This document shows, one piece after another, positions 47,475 through 64,000 of a stretch of DNA of 64,000 bases. The stretch lies in the sequence record PQ415074.1, one strand, 5' to 3'. Below the pieces are notes generated by a model. The model had not been told where the DNA came from, did not search any database, and was given only the letters and a program-made list of their open reading frames with translations. The stretch comes from Pseudomonas phage Baskent_P6. How positions within the stretch are numbered: position 1 is the stretch's first letter; each line of letters opens with the position of its first letter. The position numbers and the translations under genes were made by a program.

Positions 47475-48233
47475 TCAGGTGAAGAGGGTGGGCTGGGCGC
47501 TCTTGTCCAGCGACTGCTGGATCTTGGTGAAGGCCTCGGGGTGCTGCTGGTCGAACGCTGGCATGCGGGGCGACTCAACCCAGGTGCCGCGCTCGGCGCC
47601 CTTGTCGAGCCAGGATCGTGTCCAGTTCGTCGCGCTGACGCCGCATTCGGCGATCTGCTTCGTGGTGATGAAGCCCTGGCGGCGTAGCGTGGCGATCACC
47701 TTCAGCGCGCCTTCCTTCCATTGGGTGAGCCGCAGCGGAGCCGGAACGCCGGCGGGCACGTCGGGGACCACGATCGGGACATGGCAGCGTTCCGCGGGGT
47801 TCCAGTCGAAGATGTTGGGCTCGTTGAAGTGCTTGACCCAATGGGATAGGCCGAAGTCGGGCCCTTCGACGTAACCCCCGTTGCGTCGCACGTAGCCACG
47901 GTGCGGCGCAAGAACCGCTACGCCGCACATTTCAAGCAGGCGCGCGATTCTGTGGCTGGCCTCGGTGATCCGCCCGACAATGACCAGGCGGTGATCTGGC
48001 CCGGGCGCCCCGTACCGGTCCTGCCAGTACTGCGGCAGGATCTGGTCGGCCACCTTGGCGTTCAACTGCAGCTTGGCCTCGACGCCGATCTGCCGGCCAT
48101 CCTCATGGACCACCAGGATGTCGAACCCTGCAGTCTCCGGGTAGCAGGTCCAGCCAGGGACTCGGTTGAACTCGTCGATGAACGCCGCGCAGAGTTCGGC
48201 CTCGCTCTGCACCAGCGGGGCCTGGCTCTTCAT
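47475..48233 (-). CDS. PD-(D/E)xK-type nuclease-like protein
   Basis: DFDILVVHEDGRQIGVEAKLQ contains a D-x(n)-E-x-K signature; ATGA coupling to the upstream gene. Confidence 0.45.
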   Translation of the reverse strand: MKSQAPLVQSEAELCAAFIDEFNRVPGWTCYPETAGFDILVVHEDGRQIGVEAKLQLNAKVADQILPQYWQDRYGAPGPDHRLVIVGRITEASHRIARLLEMCGVAVLAPHRGYVRRNGGYVEGPDFGLSHWVKHFNEPNIFDWNPAERCHVPIVVPDVPAGVPAPLRLTQWKEGALKVIATLRRQGFITTKQIAECGVSATNWTRSWLDKGAERGTWVESPRMPAFDQQHPEAFTKIQQSLDKSAQPTLFT

Positions 48234-48529
48234 GTCGGTATCTCCGCAGGACCGGTGATGTGCTCCGCGTGCAGAGCGCGCATTCCCAGCCTGGCGCCCT
48301 TCGAATCCATCCAGCCGGGCAGCAGGGCGATTGCCTGGCAGGTGAGCAGCTTCTGCAGGTCGAGCCGCAGGTAGTCGGCCCACTCGAAGCCCGGAATCTC
48401 GCCGTGCTCGGCGGGGTTCTCGACCTGGTACCCGAGGCTGCGCAGGCGCGCGGCTTCGGCGTGGAACGCGGGGAAGTTGTGTTCCGGCAGGCCGGTCATG
48501 GGGCCGGCGAGGTAGATGCGCTGGGTCAT
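48230..48529 (-). CDS. DUF4406-like (nucleoside 2-deoxyribosyltransferase-like) protein
   Basis: MTQRIYLAGPMTGLPEHNFPAF...QAIALLPGWMDSKGARLGMRA matches the DUF4406 pattern; internal ATG of track ORF 48230..49096. Confidence 0.55.
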   Translation of the reverse strand: MTQRIYLAGPMTGLPEHNFPAFHAEAARLRSLGYQVENPAEHGEIPGFEWADYLRLDLQKLLTCQAIALLPGWMDSKGARLGMRALHAEHITGPAEIPT

Positions 48530-49392
48530 TCTCCGCGCGCCTCCTGAATATCGGCCTCGGTCAGGGTGTAACTGGTAACCCCGTCGACGAGATAGAAGTC
48601 CGGCGGGCAGTTCGCCCTGGCCCAGCCGCGCAGGAAGCTTCCCAGGTCGGCCATTGCTTCCTTGCTGGCCTGCGGCCAGTCGTCCACCCATTCCCCGGCA
48701 TCGCTGCAACTGGCGTTGTCGTTCATGCTGCTGATCAGGCTGTCCGGATCGACGAAGCCAGCGGGATCGAGGTAGCGCTTCGTTCCGAAGTACACGGTGG
48801 AGCCTGCCTGCAACTCGTCGTAGCTGGTGATGAGTTCTGAGAGATCCTCGTTGTGCCAGTCCTCTCCGTTGGCGCTCCAGGTGATTTCCCCTGACCGTGG
48901 ATCGCTGTAAGCGACGGCCGGAGCATCCCCAGTGCGGTCGTGCTCGATCGCCTTGTCGACTGGCACCGTGCGCCAGTCCGGCCAGGTGCGCGCCTCGTTC
49001 TTCGTCTGCTTGGCGACCAGGGCTTCGATGATCTGCGCGGGAGTGGCGCCGGTGCGCCAAGCCCCGTCCAGGGCCAGGATCACAACGTCGATCCACTCGG
49101 CCAGGTCGCCAGGGTTCTCCTCGATCTCGCGCAACTCCTTCCGGATGTGGTCGACGACGCCAGCGGCGCGCGACCCAGGCCCGAACGTGCGTTCGCTGAA
49201 ACGGCGCTGGCGCTCCAGGTGCAGGTCGAGACGGAACACGTCCAGCCGCCCGCGGGCGCGGCCAAGCGCGTAAGCCTCGTCCTGGAACATCAGGAGGTGA
49301 TCGCTGGTGCGTCCGGTCAGGACATTGAGATAGCGGCTGTGGAGCGCCTCAATTGCAAGATGATCGTCGGGGTGGTTCTGGTTCGTCGTCAT
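48526..49392 (-). CDS. MazG/DUF550-like nucleotide pyrophosphohydrolase with C-terminal extension
   Basis: DLAEWIDVVILALDGAWRTGATPAQIIEALVAKQTKNEARTWPD resembles phage MazG-like/DUF550 proteins; ATG 49392 (MTTNQNH). Confidence 0.5.
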   Translation of the reverse strand: MTTNQNHPDDHLAIEALHSRYLNVLTGRTSDHLLMFQDEAYALGRARGRLDVFRLDLHLERQRRFSERTFGPGSRAAGVVDHIRKELREIEENPGDLAEWIDVVILALDGAWRTGATPAQIIEALVAKQTKNEARTWPDWRTVPVDKAIEHDRTGDAPAVAYSDPRSGEITWSANGEDWHNEDLSELITSYDELQAGSTVYFGTKRYLDPAGFVDPDSLISSMNDNASCSDAGEWVDDWPQASKEAMADLGSFLRGWARANCPPDFYLVDGVTSYTLTEADIQEARGE

Positions 49393-49840
49393 GGCTGCAC
49401 CTGCTGCTGTGAGCGGTTCCAGGGATGCCGGCGCCCGGGCTTGGGCTGCTGGCGCGGGGTGATGAGGGCGTCGCGCAGGCTCATGCCGGCGGCGACGCGG
49501 CGGCGGACGGTCGTTGCGTGGACCGGGCTCTGGAAGTGCTCCACCAGCTCGGCGATGGTCCCGGTCACGCCGTCGACGGTGAAGCGTCGGCTCTCGCTCC
49601 AGCGTTCGTGCGCGCGCTCCAGCGCTGCGGCCTGCGCCGGCGTGCAGCGTCCGCGCTTCTGCTCGTTCGCACGCTGGTGGTCGGTTGAGCATCCGCGTGC
49701 TGGCCAGGTGATCTCCGGCATCAGGGTCAGCAGCTCTCGGAACTTCCAGGGGCCCATGCCGAGCGCGTGCATGGTGGCGCGCCGGGAAAGCCCGCGCGCG
49801 GCCGCGTTGCGAATGAACTGTTCGGTGTTCACGGGTTCAC
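49389..49840 (-). CDS. Hypothetical protein with C-terminal HTH-like segment; GTG start assumed
   Basis: TTVRRRVAAGMSLRDAL; start ambiguous. Confidence 0.35.
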
Positions 49841-51637
49841 CTCCTGTTGCGCGACGCTCAACCCCACCGCTACCTGCCGCACCCAGATCGGCGTATTGCT
49901 GAGCATGAAGGTTTCGCCGGCCTCGGCCAGCAGCAGCGTTGTACCCATCACGCCGGCGATGGCCTCGGCCGCGGCCGGCGGTACGGCGTTGCCGATGCGC
50001 TCGCGCCAGTCGCTGTCGCTCAGGCCGTCGAGGATCAACTGTTCTTCCGGGTCCACCAGGCTCTGCAGCGCGGCCAACTCCAGGGTGGTGAAGGGCCGGT
50101 GCCAAGTGCCGTCCAGCGACTGGATGATGCAGGTGAGCCGGTCGTTCGCCGTCGGCATGCGCGGGTCGGCGACGCTCCACCGGCCATTGTCGTGCCGCGC
50201 GCTGGCGGATACTGCGCCGGCGGACTGGTCGAACCCGACGACACCGTAGTGCCCGCCGGTCAGGTAGGCGTCGCCCTTGGTGCGATCGAGCACGCGCGGA
50301 TCAGCGATCGACAGCGCGCCGCTGGCCACCTGCTGGGAGCCGGTGACCGTGCCGGTAGCGCTTCCCCACTCGCCGACGTGCAATTTGCGGCTGCTCGCCC
50401 CTGGGTGCCAGTTGTGGTACCTGGGATCGGCAACAGCCTGGCCTCCGGAACTGGGTGAGTGCCCGCCGGTGACGGTTCCGGCGTGGCTCCCCATGCTGAC
50501 GACGCGAAACACGTTGTTGTGCCGGACGCCGCCTGGGCGCGGGTCGGCGACGCTGAATGTGCCTTGGCCTGGCATCGTTTGCCCTGGGATAGTCGGCGCT
50601 GATTCGGCCCAGCGGATCACCCCGAACTGCTGGCCGTGGTTCCAGTTTGCGGCTTGGCGGTAGCGAGGATCGGCTACCGAAAATGCGCCGTTGGTAGGGC
50701 CGGAGCGGCCGGCGATAGTGCTGGCAGTGTCGTCCCACCCATGCACCCCCATGTAGCCGGAGCGGTACTCCGGCACGATTACCAGGTCGCGCAGGTGGCC
50801 GTCCTCGATCGCCAGCTTGTTCAGGCTCCGCCAGTCGCTGCCGGCCTCTACCAAGGCCAGGCGCACCCAGGTCTTCCAGTGCAGCGATGGGATGCGGTGC
50901 ATTGGCCCCGCGGCATCGATGTCGCCCGGCAGCGGCATGCGGCCGAGGATGTCGCCGACGGCGCGCAGGCTCTTCTTCTCTGGCTCGTACAGGAAGGGGG
51001 GCACTTTTTCGACGTGCCGCGCGACAAGCAGGAAGCGCTTCCGGGACTGCGCCAGGCCGCCGAGTTCGCCGCAGTCGTGAGTGGTTTCCGCCACTGCGTA
51101 GCCGAAGCCGCCGAGCAGGCTATTGATCTGGTCCAGCAGGTGCCGGCCGCGGCTGGCAAGGCGTGGGACGTTCTCGAAGACGATCAGCGGTACCGGGTCA
51201 TCAGCCCATGCCTCGCCCATCAGCCAGATGCAGCGCAGCGTCAACTCGTTCAGCGCCTGGTACTTTGGAGTCAGGCTCATCTTCTCCGACAGCAGGCCGC
51301 TGGCGCCTTTGCAGGGCGAGCTGATGAACACGGCATCCGGCCGGCGCCCGCCGGCGGCGCGACGAATATCCTCCGGAGTCGCCTCCCGCCAACCGGCGGG
51401 CGGCTCCTTTCCATGGAAGCGGATGTATTGGTCGCGGGTGAACAGGTCCAGCAGGGTACCCGGGACACCGGCCAGGCGCTCGAAGTCGCGCAGGCCGGCC
51501 GGGTCCACGTCGATCCCGCCGAGGCAGACCCATTCAGCCTCGACGTTGCCGACCCGCGGGCGCGCCCGGTTGAAACCGGCGGCGCCGCCGCCCAGGCCGC
51601 AGCAGAAGTGGAAGTGGTACAGAGTGCGCTTGATCAT
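49829..51637 (-). CDS. DNA (cytosine-5)-methyltransferase with about 340-aa variable region holding five ADPR-containing repeats
   Basis: Motif I FCCGLGGG, IV SSPCKGAS, VI FENV, VIII QSRKR, X GNAVPP. Repeats FSVADPRY.., FSVADPRPG.., AVADPRYH.., LSIADPRVL.., WSVADPRMP.. between motifs VIII and IX (about nt 50080..50690). Confidence 0.8.
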   Translation of the reverse strand: MIKRTLYHFHFCCGLGGGAAGFNRARPRVGNVEAEWVCLGGIDVDPAGLRDFERLAGVPGTLLDLFTRDQYIRFHGKEPPAGWREATPEDIRRAAGGRRPDAVFISSPCKGASGLLSEKMSLTPKYQALNELTLRCIWLMGEAWADDPVPLIVFENVPRLASRGRHLLDQINSLLGGFGYAVAETTHDCGELGGLAQSRKRFLLVARHVEKVPPFLYEPEKKSLRAVGDILGRMPLPGDIDAAGPMHRIPSLHWKTWVRLALVEAGSDWRSLNKLAIEDGHLRDLVIVPEYRSGYMGVHGWDDTASTIAGRSGPTNGAFSVADPRYRQAANWNHGQQFGVIRWAESAPTIPGQTMPGQGTFSVADPRPGGVRHNNVFRVVSMGSHAGTVTGGHSPSSGGQAVADPRYHNWHPGASSRKLHVGEWGSATGTVTGSQQVASGALSIADPRVLDRTKGDAYLTGGHYGVVGFDQSAGAVSASARHDNGRWSVADPRMPTANDRLTCIIQSLDGTWHRPFTTLELAALQSLVDPEEQLILDGLSDSDWRERIGNAVPPAAAEAIAGVMGTTLLLAEAGETFMLSNTPIWVRQVAVGLSVAQQEVNP

Positions 51638-54264
51638 GCGGCGGGTTCCTTATGGATAATGTCGGCCTCGGCCTCGAGCAGGGCGAACAGGTCGGGCATG
51701 GCCATCTCTTCCTCGGCAGACTTGCAATAGCCGGCACCGTCCAGGAAGTAGCGGGAGTTCAGTTCGTGGGCGCGGGCTCTGCGCTTGAGCTTCAGCGCGC
51801 AGTACGGGACGGTCATGATCCCGCCGAAGGGATCGAAGACCAGGTCTCCTTCCATGGAGTACTGCACGATGGCCCGGTCGACGATGTCGAACTGCAGCGG
51901 GCACAGGTGCATTTCCTGGCCCTTGCTGTACTGCTGGGCGTTGAGCGTCCGCATGCGGGCGACGTCGGTCCATACGTCCGGGTGCCAGGACTGCGGTGGC
52001 AGCAGCATGAAGCCGGTGGGCAGCTTCCCGGTGACCTCCAGCGATTCGCCGATGCGGACGTGGTGCTCGAAGTCGTAGACGGTGGACAGGCTGTAGTCGC
52101 GGTACAGCTTGAACATCACGTCGTGCGGAATGCCTTCGAAGTCCGCTTCAGTCAGCGGACGGTTGCCGTTGCTGCGGGTGAAGCCGTGGGCGTCCAACTG
52201 CCAGCGTGCCCGGCTGTAGCCGTTGCCGCGGGTGACGGTGAGCTTCTTGTCCATGGCGAAGGGGACGATCTGGCCGTCTTCGTCGATGCACAGGGGCTTG
52301 GCCTTGACCACCGGAATGTCGCCGTAGGCGTTGGAGTTGTCGGTGGGGGGCTTGCGGAAGATCAGCAGGTACTCGGGCATGCCGACACCCATCTTGGTGC
52401 CGTCCTTGCACTGTTCCGTCCACGAGAGGCGGTAGGTCTGGGCGTTCTCGCGAACCACGTCGGTGACGATGGTCTTCATGCCCATATAGGCCCAGCCATG
52501 CTTGACGAAGGCTCGAGTCACTTCCATGTGGAAGGGGTAGACGGTCTGGAAGCCAAGGCCGGTCATTCCGCCGGGAATGATGCGATCCTTCACGTGGATG
52601 CAGGCCAGACGCCCGGGGATGGTCACGCGCAGCAGTTCCGGGATCAGATAGTCCATCTGCTCGAAGAAGTGCGCGTTGTCGTCGGTGTGGCCGAAGTCGG
52701 CGTAGTTCGGCGAGTACTCGTACTGGGTGCTGAAGGGGATGCTGGTGATGGTCAAGCCGACGCTGTTGCTTTCCATGCGGCAGGTTTCGAGCACGGTGTC
52801 GTTGTTGACGATGGTGTAGTCCTTGCCCTTGATCTCGACGCGCTCCACGCCCATGGAGCGGGTGAGGGTCTGTGCCATGGCGGCCACGGACAGGCCGTAC
52901 TGCTTGATGATCTCGGTCATGCGCTGAACCATGGTGTTGTGCTGCTGCCACTTCCGTTCGAGTTGGCGGCGGATGTCGCGCTCGGCCTCGGTATAGATCA
53001 GGTCGATGCGCACACGGCCTGTCTGCAGGAATCGGTGCAGGCGGTGAATGGACTGGATGAAGTCGTTGAACTTGAAGCCGATGCCCAGGTAGATGGCCCA
53101 CGAGCAGTGGCGCTGGAAGTTGCAGCCGCTGCCTGCGATCACTGGTTTGGCAGCCAGTTCCTGGAACTCGCCGTCGCTGAACTGGACAATCGCGCGCTCG
53201 CGCTCCTCCAGATCCTGGGCGCCGTAGACGCTGATGGCGGTGGGGATAGCGGCCTCGATCGCGTGGCGTTCCGCCTCGAGGTCATGCCAGATGATCCGGT
53301 GAGCATCTGGAGCCTCGGCCCGGATCTCCATCAGTTTGGCGATCCGGGCAGGAAGGCTCTCGCGCTTCTCTGCGGCGGCGTCCTGCACGCCAATGGCGGT
53401 GTTGCGAAGCAGGCGGCCCTGGCCGTTACGCTCATGGCCAGCGTGCGAGTGGTCGGACGGTACTTCGTGCCAGCGGATGTCCAGTTCCGGTAGCGCGTAG
53501 CCTTCGTCGCTGAACCCGAGGTCGCTGGGGCGCTGAACGAAGATCGCCCAGGATGCCACCCACATCCAGAACTCGCCCTCTTTGTGGGCATGGATGGTGA
53601 GTTGGTCGGCCTTCTCAGAGTTGCGTTTGAAGAACCTGGTCTTGGCCTGGCCGACATCCATCACGCCGAGGAAGGCCGAGTAAGCCAGTAGCTCGATGTA
53701 TTCGTTCGGGCTTGGCGTGGCAGTGGCCACGTACCGGTACCGGACGCCATCGCCGCGGACGCCGGCGGCGCGATCGTCACCAGCGAACAGAGCCATGAAC
53801 TCGCGGAACGTCTTGCTGCCGCCGAAGCCGCGAAGGCAACTGGCTTCGTCCAGGCTTGCCACGCTGAACCGGCGAGGGTCGAGCTTGCCGTCGCGGACGG
53901 TCTCGTAATTGGTCAGGTAGATGGTGGCGGGGTCGTCTACCTCGTCGAAACTGCGGATGAACCGGACGGTGATGCCGAGCATCGCGGCGTCGCGGTAGAA
54001 CTCCTGGCGCACACCCAGCGGAATGGTGATGAGAGCGTAGCCGCCGGCTAGGTCGCGGGTGACGCGCACCACCTCAAGCTGCATTACCGACTTGCCCAGG
54101 CCGAAGGCCGCGAAACAGGCCGCGCGGCCTTGGCGCACCAGCCAGGTGGCGATGGCGCGCTGGTGCGGCTTGAGCAGGGGGTTGAAGGCCGAGGGCTCCA
54201 CTTCGAAGCCTTTCGGCTCGGCGAGGCGGACCTTCGCTCGCAAGAAGTCTTCATAGGCGGTCAT
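51634..54264 (-). CDS. SF2 helicase fused to a beta-class N6/N4 DNA methyltransferase domain
   Basis: Helicase motif I AAFGLGKS, II LDEAS, III TATPSPN, VI QSIHRLHRF (nt about 54120..52980). C-terminal MTase motif IFRKPPTD then FDPFGGIMTVPYCA (nt about 52350..51800). ATGA-coupled to the C5-MTase gene. Confidence 0.75.
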   Translation of the reverse strand: MTAYEDFLRAKVRLAEPKGFEVEPSAFNPLLKPHQRAIATWLVRQGRAACFAAFGLGKSVMQLEVVRVTRDLAGGYALITIPLGVRQEFYRDAAMLGITVRFIRSFDEVDDPATIYLTNYETVRDGKLDPRRFSVASLDEASCLRGFGGSKTFREFMALFAGDDRAAGVRGDGVRYRYVATATPSPNEYIELLAYSAFLGVMDVGQAKTRFFKRNSEKADQLTIHAHKEGEFWMWVASWAIFVQRPSDLGFSDEGYALPELDIRWHEVPSDHSHAGHERNGQGRLLRNTAIGVQDAAAEKRESLPARIAKLMEIRAEAPDAHRIIWHDLEAERHAIEAAIPTAISVYGAQDLEERERAIVQFSDGEFQELAAKPVIAGSGCNFQRHCSWAIYLGIGFKFNDFIQSIHRLHRFLQTGRVRIDLIYTEAERDIRRQLERKWQQHNTMVQRMTEIIKQYGLSVAAMAQTLTRSMGVERVEIKGKDYTIVNNDTVLETCRMESNSVGLTITSIPFSTQYEYSPNYADFGHTDDNAHFFEQMDYLIPELLRVTIPGRLACIHVKDRIIPGGMTGLGFQTVYPFHMEVTRAFVKHGWAYMGMKTIVTDVVRENAQTYRLSWTEQCKDGTKMGVGMPEYLLIFRKPPTDNSNAYGDIPVVKAKPLCIDEDGQIVPFAMDKKLTVTRGNGYSRARWQLDAHGFTRSNGNRPLTEADFEGIPHDVMFKLYRDYSLSTVYDFEHHVRIGESLEVTGKLPTGFMLLPPQSWHPDVWTDVARMRTLNAQQYSKGQEMHLCPLQFDIVDRAIVQYSMEGDLVFDPFGGIMTVPYCALKLKRRARAHELNSRYFLDGAGYCKSAEEEMAMPDLFALLEAEADIIHKEPAA

Positions 54265-54532
54265 GCTGTTTCCTTGAGGAACGGCACGCACCGGACGCCG
54301 CCCTGCCTGACAGGGCGGCCCACGAGGCATGGTTGAATCGCCCACAGGGCGGCGTCCGGTGCGTGCTGGAAGAGAAAGCGCCCCGGGTGGGGCGCTGTAT
54401 CGAGGGTCAGGTCGCAGCCTGGAGCTGGTGACCACGACCTAGAGGAATAAACTGAGCTTGAAATGCAGATCGATTGCCCTAAAACTCGATGGTGAAGTCA
54501 CGGTGCTATTACTTGACCAACTAGGGGGATCT

Positions 54533-61819: not shown

Positions 61820-62104
61820 CGTCTTGCCCTCCAGGGCGTGTTGACTTCTTCGATGCCCCTCTTGCGAAGGGCATCTGAGAAATCGGTGTTGCTGGCCGGC
61901 GTTACGCGCCACCTCCGGCTGGGCGAATGCTTTCTCGGGGGACCTGAGATCCCGACAGCCGGCCACGCTTTGCTGCCGACTCTCGCTTGCGGTGCTCGAA
62001 GCTGCACACCCGGGGCGAGGCGTCCCCTGAATCCCGTTCTGCCTGTCGGCAAGGCCTTGGCTCGCTGTGGCCTGTTCTGTCGTCACGATGTTCTGTGTCG
62101 ATGA

Positions 62105-62160
62105 GATAAAAATTACCAGTGGCATTTAAGTAATGTCAATGCTGATGGTAATAAAATTTT
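62105..62160 (-). promoter_or_regulatory. pL/OL-like region: leftward TTGACA-N17/18-TAATTT promoter overlapping operator-like half-sites (ccactggtaatt; tggtaataaaatt)
   Basis: Read on the - strand: cattgacattacttaaatgccactggtaatttttatc; similarity to the CACAGGTAATATT operators at the cI/cro side. Confidence 0.45.
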
Positions 62161-62181
62161 CCAACGCTCATCAGGCACAGG

Positions 62182-62222
62182 TTGAATGGGTGAGGTGGTG
62201 GGTATACTGTATTTATATACAG
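62182..62222 (+). promoter_or_regulatory. Rightward sigma70-like promoter (TTGAAT-N15-TATACT) overlapped by a perfect LexA/SOS box CTGTATTTATATACAG (62207..62222)
   Basis: Read directly; box fits CTGT-N8-ACAG; the -10 hexamer overlaps the box. Confidence 0.6.
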
Positions 62223-62238
62223 CTAACGGGAGGTGCTT

Positions 62239-62508
62239 ATGGCTAAGCAACAGAAGAAGCAGCAGGTGGTGAAACCGCTGACGGCAGCCGAACGGCTGGG
62301 CCTGCGCGTTTCAGAGATGATCAATTCACCGAAGGCTCAGGATCTGAGGATGGTGACAATTCACCGGCTGGACACGGATTCCGATGAAGCCTGGGAGGGA
62401 GTGATGGGAGTACTTGCCGAGACGGACGGTCTTGAGCTGATCTTTAACGATGACGGTACCGTCACTCTTAAGTGGGAGAAGCAGGAGAGGGAGGAGGAGG
62501 CCTGGTAG
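62239..62508 (+). CDS. Small acidic hypothetical protein (90 aa), LexA-box controlled, in the immunity region
   Basis: RBS gggaggtg before ATG 62239; ends at the shared terminator. Confidence 0.5.
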   Translation: MAKQQKKQQVVKPLTAAERLGLRVSEMINSPKAQDLRMVTIHRLDTDSDEAWEGVMGVLAETDGLELIFNDDGTVTLKWEKQEREEEAW

Positions 62509-62520
62509 GCTGGATACGAA

Positions 62521-62543
62521 AAGCCCCGCGTGGGGCGGGGCTT
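62521..62543. terminator. Rho-independent terminator AAGCCCCGC-gtggg-GCGGGGCTT shared by cI (- strand, T-run present) and gene 62239..62508
   Basis: 9-bp stem; on the - strand it is followed by TTTTCGT. Confidence 0.65.
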
Positions 62544-62560
62544 GTTAAGCAAGGCGCGTA

Positions 62561-63346
62561 TCAGTGCTTCCTACGTCTGAGTACCGACCACCAGAATACC
62601 CAGCCCATGATGCTGAGGTTGTTCTCGCGCATCTGGTCCTTGGTGTACTCCTCGTCTGGGTATTCGTCACGGTTAAAACTGCGTAGGCGGATGCCACCAC
62701 CAGGCAATCGGTAGACGAACTTCACCCGTAGCATGTCATCGTGTTTCAACGCATAAATCTCGCCATCGATTATCGTATGGGCGGATAGGTCAACCCCGAT
62801 GATGGCGCCATCGGCAATCAGAGGCTCCATGCTGTTGCCACTGACATTCACGCAGACCGAATGTTTTGGATCCACCCCCGACTCGCGCAGACCAGCCTTC
62901 GCGAACCTGATTTTTTGCTTGGCCTGCTCACGGTCGGGATAGCGACCGTCCCCCGCGGCGATTTGGATCTCGTCGAAGTACGGTATTTCAACCTCATCCG
63001 GGTCGAGCGGGTCCCCCACCTCGAAACTGGACATGGGCGTAAGTTCGCCCTCTGTCTCCGCTTTAGGCGCCGGCCGGAGAGTCTTCGCCATATCCGTTAT
63101 TTCGTCCGCTAGGCGCGGACTGAACTCCCGAACATGAACCTGGAGAATTTCTGCGAATGCCGCCGCTGCCTGGGCGTTCAAAGGGTTCACGCCATTCAGG
63201 TAGTGGCTAACGGAGCTTTGGTTGATCCCAAGGAGGTGGGCGAGCTTCTCCTGCGTTAGACCGAGGTCACGCTTTCTGCTGTTGAAGATGGCCTTCAGTT
63301 GAAGGCACTCGTCTTTTCTGTCTGGTGGAAGAGGTTTTTTGCTCAT
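62561..63346 (-). CDS. cI: CI-like repressor (N-terminal HTH, C-terminal S24 LexA-like autopeptidase domain)
   Basis: HTH LGLTQEKLAHLLGINQSSVSHYLNG; C-terminal GNSMEPLIADGAIIGVD...K (Ser/Lys dyad context). Start MSKKPLPP inside track ORF 62561..63382. Confidence 0.85.
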   Translation of the reverse strand: MSKKPLPPDRKDECLQLKAIFNSRKRDLGLTQEKLAHLLGINQSSVSHYLNGVNPLNAQAAAAFAEILQVHVREFSPRLADEITDMAKTLRPAPKAETEGELTPMSSFEVGDPLDPDEVEIPYFDEIQIAAGDGRYPDREQAKQKIRFAKAGLRESGVDPKHSVCVNVSGNSMEPLIADGAIIGVDLSAHTIIDGEIYALKHDDMLRVKFVYRLPGGGIRLRSFNRDEYPDEEYTKDQMRENNLSIMGWVFWWSVLRRRKH

Positions 63347-63362
63347 CTTCGAATCGTATTCC

Positions 63363-63424
63363 CACAGGTAATATTTCAGCAAATGCCTATAGCATTGAAA
63401 TGTTTAAATGCCACAGGTAATATT
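63363..63424. promoter_or_regulatory. OR-like operators: two exact copies of CACAGGTAATATT (63363..63375, 63412..63424) in the cI/cro intergenic region
   Basis: tcccacaggtaatatttc and tgccacaggtaatattct read directly. Confidence 0.6.
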
Positions 63425-63454
63425 CTGGTGTGAGGAACACTTTGGAGAGCGGTC

Positions 63455-63655
63455 ATGAACCGAGTACACATCAAGACATTTGCCTCCGAGCACGGGCAGT
63501 CCAGGGCTGCGGCGCTACTCGGCATCACTCAAGGGGCACTCAGCAAGGCTTTGCGTGTTGGTCGTGACATCTACGTCACCGCGCATGCTGATGGGACTTT
63601 CACTGCCGAGGAGGTGCGCACCTTTCCGGCCCAGAAGGTGCGCTTCGTTTCTTGA
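63455..63655 (+). CDS. cro: Cro-like repressor (66 aa)
   Basis: Small HTH protein (GQSRAAALLGITQGALSKAL) divergent from cI. Confidence 0.6.
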   Translation: MNRVHIKTFASEHGQSRAAALLGITQGALSKALRVGRDIYVTAHADGTFTAEEVRTFPAQKVRFVS

Positions 63656-63732
63656 CATGGACTGGTTCGTAGCAGGCGTGACTGCTGCAAGTAGATGCGT
63701 CAGCCAGCGCTTGGCGCAGGAGAACCAGGGCC

Positions 63733-64000
63733 TATGGGAACCGAGAACAGGGCTGACATGCAGTTCACCGTGACGATCAATCAAGCGAAAGCGCTCGAGT
63801 GGGGGCTGAACTCGCAGCAGGCGCTGCTGTTCGCCTTCGTCTACGAGTGCCCGAGTTGGGCGCGCCTGGTTCAGACGCCCGCAGGTGATTTCTACGCCCT
63901 GAGCAAAGCGAAGATCCTCGAGGAGTTGCCGCTGCTGACGGACAAGCCGGACACGGCGTACCGCTTGCTGAAGCAGATCGCTGCGGCCGGTGTGATCGAT
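63733..64000 (+). CDS. Replication initiator, N-terminal DNA-binding part; 3'-partial at the window edge
   Basis: Open to the window end; winged-helix-like N-terminus, as in O-type initiators; position after cro. Confidence 0.45.

Follow-up and report, generated by a model that had tools for sequence, protein, structure and literature searches.

Five tandem TRD-like units in a candidate multispecific C5-cytosine DNA methyltransferase of Pseudomonas phage Baskent_P6

Background

Arrays of multiple target-recognising domains (TRDs) in a single polypeptide have been credited to Bacillus temperate phages only (2025 review, PMC12707154). Tandem TRDs are the route by which the DNA methyltransferases (MTases) of these phages reach several specificities, a view also taken in PMC8936443, and the reviews ascribe an anti-restriction role to the enzymes (PMC12707154, PMC8936443). 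Here we describe a C5-cytosine DNA MTase gene of Pseudomonas phage Baskent_P6, located at 49829..51637 on the minus strand of the 64,000-nucleotide stretch of sequence record PQ415074.1 that was analysed (the window). Its product has intact catalytic motifs and, between motifs VIII and IX, five tandem units with a core homologous to that of TRDs; such units have evolved in the manner of cassettes, and the gene lies in a prophage early-region context. From these sequence features we consider it rather probable that the protein is a multispecific anti-restriction methylase, in which one catalytic core serves five different TRD cassettes.

A second group of enzymes is relevant here. The Paracoccus aminophilus prophage 5-methylcytosine (m5C) MTases JCM7686_0772 and JCM7686_2655, encoded by 2.1-kb genes, have been expressed in E. 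coli (PMC3925955). Both partly protected AGCT, GGCC, CCNGG, CCWGG, CCSGG, GCGC, CCGG and other sites, including GCN7GC, ACGT, CAGCTG and CTCGAG, and CGCG, GATC, CATG, CTAG, GGNNCC, CCWWGG and CCATGG were unprotected (PMC3925955, Additional file 8). The authors termed this pattern relaxed specificity (PMC3925955), a description taken up again in PMC5537653 and PMC6536676; none of these three papers mentions a repeat or TRD array in the JCM7686 MTases.

The methyltransferase gene and its predicted fold

The open reading frame (ORF) at 49829..51637 encodes 602 aa and, by ORF, Pfam and motif scans, is an intact C5-cytosine MTase as judged from its sequence. Motif I (FCCGLGGG, AdoMet binding; aa 11–18, 51584..51607) was located by motif scan. 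Motifs IV (SPCK, with catalytic Cys109; aa 107–110, 51308..51319), VI (ENV; aa 155–157, 51167..51175), VIII (QSRKR; aa 197–201, 51035..51049), IX (RPFTTLELAALQS; aa 514–526, 50060..50098) and X (GNAVPP; aa 549–554, 49976..49993) were located by motif scan and profile alignment. All are encoded on the minus strand, follow the canonical C5 order and were aligned to DNMT1 and HaeIII by profile search. An earlier note on this DNA had called a C5-MTase and quoted FCCGLGGG, SPCK, ENV, QSRKR and GNAVPP; the call and every one of these motifs stand, and its gene coordinates need only the correction that the ORF is on the minus strand.

The Pfam PF00145 score (41.5 bits) was above the curated cut-off (22 bits). 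The score against NCBIfam TIGR00675 (dcm) was 28 bits, far below the threshold of 100.65, which places the protein outside the close Dcm-type members. The start of the gene and the stop of its upstream neighbour overlap (ATGA), as do its own stop and a downstream GTG start, indicating a translationally coupled operon.

Motif VIII is followed by the constant N-terminal part of the small domain (aa 205–283, 50789..51025, minus strand), which includes GSDWRSL, shared with the start of the DNMT1 TRD. The spacer between motifs VIII and IX is 312 aa. The earlier note had rightly seen this region as enlarged, but its figure of about 340 aa fits the distance from VIII to X (347 aa) instead.

The predicted fold, on an AlphaFold2 model, is the two-domain C5 MTase fold. 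When this model was searched with Foldseek, DNMT1 was matched at E ~5e-14, and the nearest solved structures were the catalytic domains of DNMT1, MET1 and ZMET2, then M.HaeIII and M.HhaI. DNMT1, MET1 and ZMET2 gave the best profile matches as well, and a G.DWRDL motif at the start of their large TRD is shared with the family of the window protein. Identity is only 12–16%, however; the eukaryotic TRD is a single large domain and not a tandem array, and the window protein is without RFTS, CXXC, BAH and chromo domains. M.HaeIII and M.HhaI have the same motif order and fold and one unit in whole proteins of 324–331 aa, compared with five units in 602 aa here.

These matches bear on the question of whether the protein is a working DNA methylase in vivo at all. 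It might instead be a relic, silent or toxic, or its C5 fold might serve a different reaction, e.g. formation of another C5 adduct: Phi2LM21_p23, from the other large prophage m5C family, is inactive in E. coli, and a C5-carboxymethyltransferase (8yf3) is among the structural neighbours. We regard this as very improbable, given that the catalytic motifs are all intact, that thousands of prophages carry the gene at full length and that genuine m5C enzymes are the protein's nearest matches in structure and sequence.

Five tandem units between motifs VIII and IX

ADPR occurs five times in the MTase (at aa 322, 364, 403, 445 and 490), each time closing one unit. The array comprises aa 284–493 (nt 50159–50788), and its five units, of 39–45 aa each, have mutual identities of 26–43%. 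By unit alignment and a unit hidden Markov model (HMM), all on the minus strand, they are R1 (...YMGVHGWDDTASTIAGRSGPTNGAFSVADPR; aa 284–325, 50663..50788), R2 (aa 326–367, 50537..50662), R3 (NNVFRVV...SPSSGG type; aa 368–406, 50420..50536), R4 (aa 407–448, 50294..50419) and R5 (GGHYGVV...HDNGRWSVADPR type; aa 449–493, 50159..50293). At the position of R2, close relatives have an alternative unit allele. R1–R4 carry T[IV] and R5 carries AV. Behind the array, a constant connector, MPTANDRLTCIIQSLDGTWH, leads into motif IX.

A 35-column unit HMM, rebuilt from distant homologues, matched each of the five units with 38–52 bits (i-Evalue 1e-13 to 4e-18). Off-diagonal self-similarity compared with shuffles gave z=14.3 for aa 284–493 and z=0.9 for the catalytic core. 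The five ADPR repeats of the earlier note are thus real, but their span, given there as 50080–50690, had to be moved to 50159–50788. No DNA-level tandem repeat was found, indicating that the duplication is ancient and that the units have diverged, rather than having been recently amplified. Across the family the unit consensus is xxxG.yGV..W.eP.gT[VI]tG......G..[SA][VI]ADPR.

Comparison of the units with known TRDs

The W..P..T[VI] signature of C5-MTase TRDs is present in the unit. M.HaeIII was matched (E=7e-6) by a profile built on the last unit together with the C-terminus; in this match gV.eW.e.a.TVtgs of the unit is paired with M.HaeIII 227–243, RVRQWNEPAFTVQAS, the single TRD segment of that enzyme, and the alignment runs on through motifs IX and X. 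When a unit-only profile was compared with the same M.HaeIII fragment by hhalign, P was 1.6e-4 over 17 columns. In MtbP (M.SPbetaI), the product of SPbeta mtbP, which we take to be the GGCC and GCNGC enzyme, the variable region contains two consecutive elements ~48 aa apart, KRVYSPEGLSPTLTTMGGG and RRFKENGEPAFTVNTIDRHG. Their cores are ...SPTLTTMGGG and ...EPAFTVNTIDRHG, the second being nearly the HaeIII motif. From the alignment with the HaeIII segment and the two tandem elements of MtbP, the unit appears to share the core logic of the TRD in C5 enzymes, whether monospecific or multispecific: first a hydrophobic strand, then (W)..P..T[LVI] and a loop.

The Bacillus group compared consisted of M.SPRI, M.Phi3TI, M.Rho11sI, M.SPbetaI/MtbP and M.H2I, with M.phiBssHII. 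Like this group, the window protein is an orphan MTase of a temperate phage, with one C5 core, an enlarged VIII–IX region and several contiguous, non-overlapping units of ~40–50 aa, each with its own P..T[LVI], as read directly in MtbP. There is no relationship beyond generic C5 motifs, however. By blastp the match to MtbP had E=0.012 and covered motifs IX–X only, and no Bacillus phage was among the tblastn matches of the MTase in 50,697 phage records. The units of the window protein are homologous to each other (z=14.3), with a conserved scaffold that ADPR closes, whereas the two TRDs of MtbP gave z=-0.3 in the same test. The unit number also differs, reaching 11–12 in this family and no more than a handful in the Bacillus group, and so do the hosts, which in this family are Proteobacteria. 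The Bacillus enzymes are proven to be multispecific, whereas in this family multispecificity is a prediction. Since the test of sequence relatedness fails (MtbP blastp, tblastn), the protein is best classed, on sequence, as at most a functional analogue of the SPR/phi3T/SPbeta group and not as a member.

Cassette behaviour of the units

Units (n=777) were typed in representatives that were <~60% identical to the window protein and came from separate 50%-identity clusters, using 19 variable columns. Average linkage on these columns replaced single linkage at 70% identity, which gave one cluster only because of the conserved scaffold. Full-length family members have 2–12 units, with a spacing of mostly 36–47 aa.

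Units inside one protein differed from each other at the 19 columns (mean best identity 0.33, with 0.9% of pairs reaching 0.5), and the same unit type was repeated within a protein in only 10 of 143 proteins. A closer counterpart was found in a protein of another 50%-identity cluster for 764 of the 777 units (mean identity 0.62). Shared pairs of unit types stood in inverted order in 282 of 1180 cases, and the same types occupied various ordinal positions; for example, 48 distant representatives had the R3 type, with positions that included 1/5, 3/5, 4/5 and 2/8. gp34 of Sinorhizobium phage PBC5 (L085:2920-5175; 751 aa) has eight ADPR units, several of them of Pseudomonas types, indicating that cassette types are conserved between Alpha- and Gammaproteobacteria.

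Exchange of whole units was seen among close relatives. Four P. aeruginosa enzymes with near-identical cores represent all four combinations of two unit-2 alleles with an extra unit that is either present or missing (architectures 70-238-39-8-90, 70-237-39-8-90, 70-237-169-39-8-90 and 70-238-169-39-8-90). The extra unit of the six-unit relatives sits between R2 and R3; in P0029 and P0038 it is GKYPVTDW...TVIAASTTGQG. Six units were found in 86 of the 120 closest relatives and five in the other 34, the window protein being of the five-unit form.

Types are defined by columns 4–7, ahead of the first strand, and 19–29, in the loop following T[VI].G. The scaffold columns do not vary; columns 10–16 do so even inside one type. 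By the M.HhaI–DNA structure, segments 4–7 and 19–29 presumably correspond to recognition loops 1 and 2. Judged by these patterns, the units act as non-redundant, shufflable cassettes and not as a fixed structural repeat.

A rival explanation is an enzyme with relaxed specificity. In such an enzyme the array would be a collective DNA-binding domain of low specificity, methylating cytosines in a very short or degenerate context, with no target for any single unit. The strong scaffold common to all units (V..W..T[VI].G..G..[SA][VI]ADPR) is what a repeat domain would have. A generic binding repeat, however, would not need unit types that are conserved and non-redundant across distant hosts, and the clustering of the type-defining residues in two loop segments also speaks against it. 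We therefore hold this explanation to be unlikely.

Another explanation is that only the constant last unit is a TRD and that the enzyme has a single specificity; the internal units would then serve as a structural spacer or as a module for oligomerisation or regulation, or would be TRD relics in decay. The R5 type was terminal in 28 of the 30 representatives having it, and it matched the last unit in 79 of 130. Pseudo-TRDs, moreover, are reportedly described for Bacillus enzymes in papers of the Trautner laboratory. Relics would decay, but the internal units are conserved equally (38–52 bits) and their types are kept from Pseudomonas to Sinorhizobium; insertion, loss and allele exchange of internal units, all in register and in near-identical enzymes, suggest that selection acts on them. 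A single-specificity enzyme is in our view quite improbable. Non-redundancy of the unit types and their exchange in register thus argue against both explanations.

Proposed mechanism and structure of the array

For the multispecific enzyme that we favour, the following mechanism is proposed. Each ~40-aa unit would form a strand-loop-strand with its own W..P..T[VI] and two variable loops, and would dock beside the flipped cytosine, specifying a DNA target different from those of the other units. Each unit would thereby confer its own specificity, and the enzyme would methylate several sequence motifs. The DNA of the phage would then be shielded from several host restriction systems on moving between strains, in an anti-restriction role, and gain, loss or exchange of whole units would alter the protective spectrum.

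Two AlphaFold2 runs were made. With 126 sequences of mixed architecture, the core had pLDDT >90, units 1–4 ~47–67 and the last unit ~90. With 33 sequences, all of them with exactly five units, the alignment was cleaner though shallower, and the whole array was below 50. The structure prediction suggested in the earlier note thus gave a confident core but no reliable model of the repeats; the region might stay flexible until it binds DNA, or the alignments might not suffice. The first run, in which the last unit is the only one modelled with confidence and no other discrete docked unit is seen, would suit both a collective binding domain and a single functional TRD at the end of the array. The confidence of R5 vanished with the other alignment, however, indicating an effect of alignment depth that does not speak for a special role of R5.

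Several points weigh against five separate specificities. The two runs disagree on R5 and model the array poorly, so that no packing of the units or docking geometry can be relied upon. With the unit-only profile, the Protein Data Bank (PDB) returned only chance NF-kB matches (E ~0.1) and no MTase; PDB sequence searches with the whole protein or a one-unit construct gave no matches. Pfam scores of artificial constructs were 43.2 bits without a unit and 43.3–44.4 bits with one, a gain of at most ~1 bit that says little, the TRD being poorly covered by the Pfam model. Homology of unit and TRD therefore rests on the contextual alignment and a modest pairwise P. The strong common scaffold ending in ADPR, which is unlike the Bacillus TRDs, could equally mark a structural repeat, and the last unit is positionally constant and may be the only true TRD. 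Up to 12 specificities per enzyme would be unprecedented, and methylation data for a member of the family were not found in the searchable literature.

The earlier note had offered tandem TRDs of the SPR/phi3T type and, alternatively, a novel repeated insertion domain. The TRD signature, the HaeIII alignment, the logic shared with MtbP, the cassette behaviour and the positions of the variable loops favour tandem TRDs in a multispecific enzyme over an insertion domain; relationship to the SPR/phi3T enzymes by sequence is the part of that proposal that did not hold.

Comparison with the Paracoccus prophage enzymes

The JCM7686_2655 gene was recovered by means of its published forward primer in an IMG/VR contig (L086:7809-9920) and encodes 703 aa. 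Its variable region consists of ~8 tandem P..T[IV]..GG units of 35–40 aa (internal repetition z=12.1). Relatives of this Paracoccus type are Phi2LM21_p23, Pyei1_p05 and the Aeromonas ARM81 phages. Like the Paracoccus type (~700 aa), the window protein is an orphan C5 MTase of a proteobacterial temperate phage, with a long variable region of tandem units, and is encoded near replication modules. The Paracoccus unit consensus, P..T[IV]..GG..ha.iap, differs from the ADPR unit.

When the window family was compared with JCM7686_2655 by hhalign, 108 columns covering motifs IV–VIII only were aligned (P=6.5e-8), and the ADPR-unit HMM found nothing significant in JCM7686_2655. Identity with the Paracoccus enzymes was rejected, as only motifs IV–VIII could be aligned and ADPR units are absent; they are a separate C5 family with an analogous array.

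An enzyme with a tandem-unit architecture thus does methylate many different sites, and either discrete specificities or a relaxed rule would fit. The restriction-protection results belong to the Paracoccus enzymes. The protection was selective, CGCG, GATC, CATG, CTAG and GGNNCC being fully cut, which fits discrete targets no less well than one relaxed rule.

Phage context and distribution of the family

The window represents a P. aeruginosa phage or prophage of the F116-like group (Hollowayvirus). In the tblastn search of the phage records, the MTase matched a gene of Pseudomonas phage vB_Pae_CF24a and of its siblings (Hollowayvirus, F116-like) at 98.5% identity; for genes of LKA5, H66, Dobby, PP9W and the P2-like phiCTX identity was 79–87%, and for those of phages of Achromobacter, Marinobacter and Sinorhizobium it was 51–59%. 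The family comprises 7230 proteins at E<1e-5 (among 90%-identity clusters), or 1242 clusters at 50% identity. One conserved peptide pattern marks 549 species-representative genomes, mainly of Pseudomonas, Cupriavidus, Burkholderia, Ralstonia and Rhodocyclales; rhizobia and relatives are also among the hosts. The family thus occurs in temperate phages of Gamma-, Beta- and Alphaproteobacteria. Its database label is merely "DNA cytosine methyltransferase", and a literature search found no paper on it. The methylases of a Burkholderia P2-like phage paper and of the ANT_H14 paper were considered and rejected, being other methylases.

At five other diverse loci the neighbours were integrase, CI-type repressor, primase, RecE-like exonuclease and primosomal proteins, and no restriction enzyme was seen in those flanking ORFs that were examined. 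In the window, the gene coupled upstream through ATGA (51634–54435, minus strand) encodes a 933-aa protein in which an SNF2-type helicase is joined to a domain of N6/N4 DNA methylases (PF01555, aa 561–897). This fusion probably shares an anti-restriction early operon with the C5 MTase in this phage. An obligate partnership was rejected, the two genes being adjacent in only 3 of 80 other loci. With phage genes as neighbours, no restriction enzyme and rare SNF2 pairing, the C5 MTase gene is an orphan, mobile, early-region phage methylase.

Some homologues have unusual structures. Four family members (P0124, P0186, P0215 and P0360; 1039–1203 aa) contain a Hint plus LAGLIDADG intein directly before motif IV (SPCK); aa 106 of the window protein aligns at ~aa 500–514 of these homologues. 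The phiCTX homologue (AB008550/NC_003278) is split over two annotated ORFs, orf40 and orf41. In PA8 (MZ285879) the homologue is a two-piece match to 66% of the query, under four "hypothetical protein" calls. The phiCTX and PA8 copies are possibly disrupted or mis-annotated.

Downstream of the MTase gene lies a 143-aa ORF (49401–49832, minus strand), with no function assigned, whose GTG start shares bases with the MTase stop (GTGA); in CF24a and LKA5 it bears the annotation hypothetical. The region 47475–49692 (minus strand) holds three ORFs that overlap one another in different frames: a MazG-like dATP/dGTP pyrophosphohydrolase ORF (48526–49692), a DUF4406 ORF (48230–49096) and a 302-aa ORF (47475–48383). 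In the near-identical phage CF24a a single 542-aa coding sequence is annotated across the matching stretch, and the overlaps may reflect frameshifts or mis-annotation. At 62001–64000 the GC content is 0.558, compared with 0.60–0.675 over the rest of the window; this stretch may be a phage-host junction or a moron.

Conclusions

More tentatively than for the window protein itself, we suggest that its relatives may form a very large, undescribed C5 MTase family of proteobacterial temperate phages, in which 2–12 interchangeable cassettes of ~40 aa, drawn from hundreds of conserved types, would each recognise one target; a second, unrelated family, of the Paracoccus type, may have reached the same solution independently. 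Multi-TRD cytosine methylases are otherwise credited to Bacillus temperate phages, and a proteobacterial family would widen the phenomenon greatly. Tandem arrays may also explain the "relaxed specificity" of other large prophage m5C methylases.

5-Methylcytosine is poorly visible to PacBio methylomics, which may account for the family having gone unnoticed. If the suggestion is true, these are the most highly multispecific DNA MTases known, and their cassettes are a readable and re-programmable specificity code; the family would be a natural library pairing TRD sequence with DNA motif, and a source of modular parts for engineered m5C writers. If each unit has one target, one small gene would pre-empt many restriction systems at once for temperate phages of Pseudomonas, Burkholderia, Cupriavidus, rhizobia and other hosts. 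Protection would then be retuned by cassette exchange, which would bear on the host range of phages in P. aeruginosa phage therapy and on the spread of prophages.

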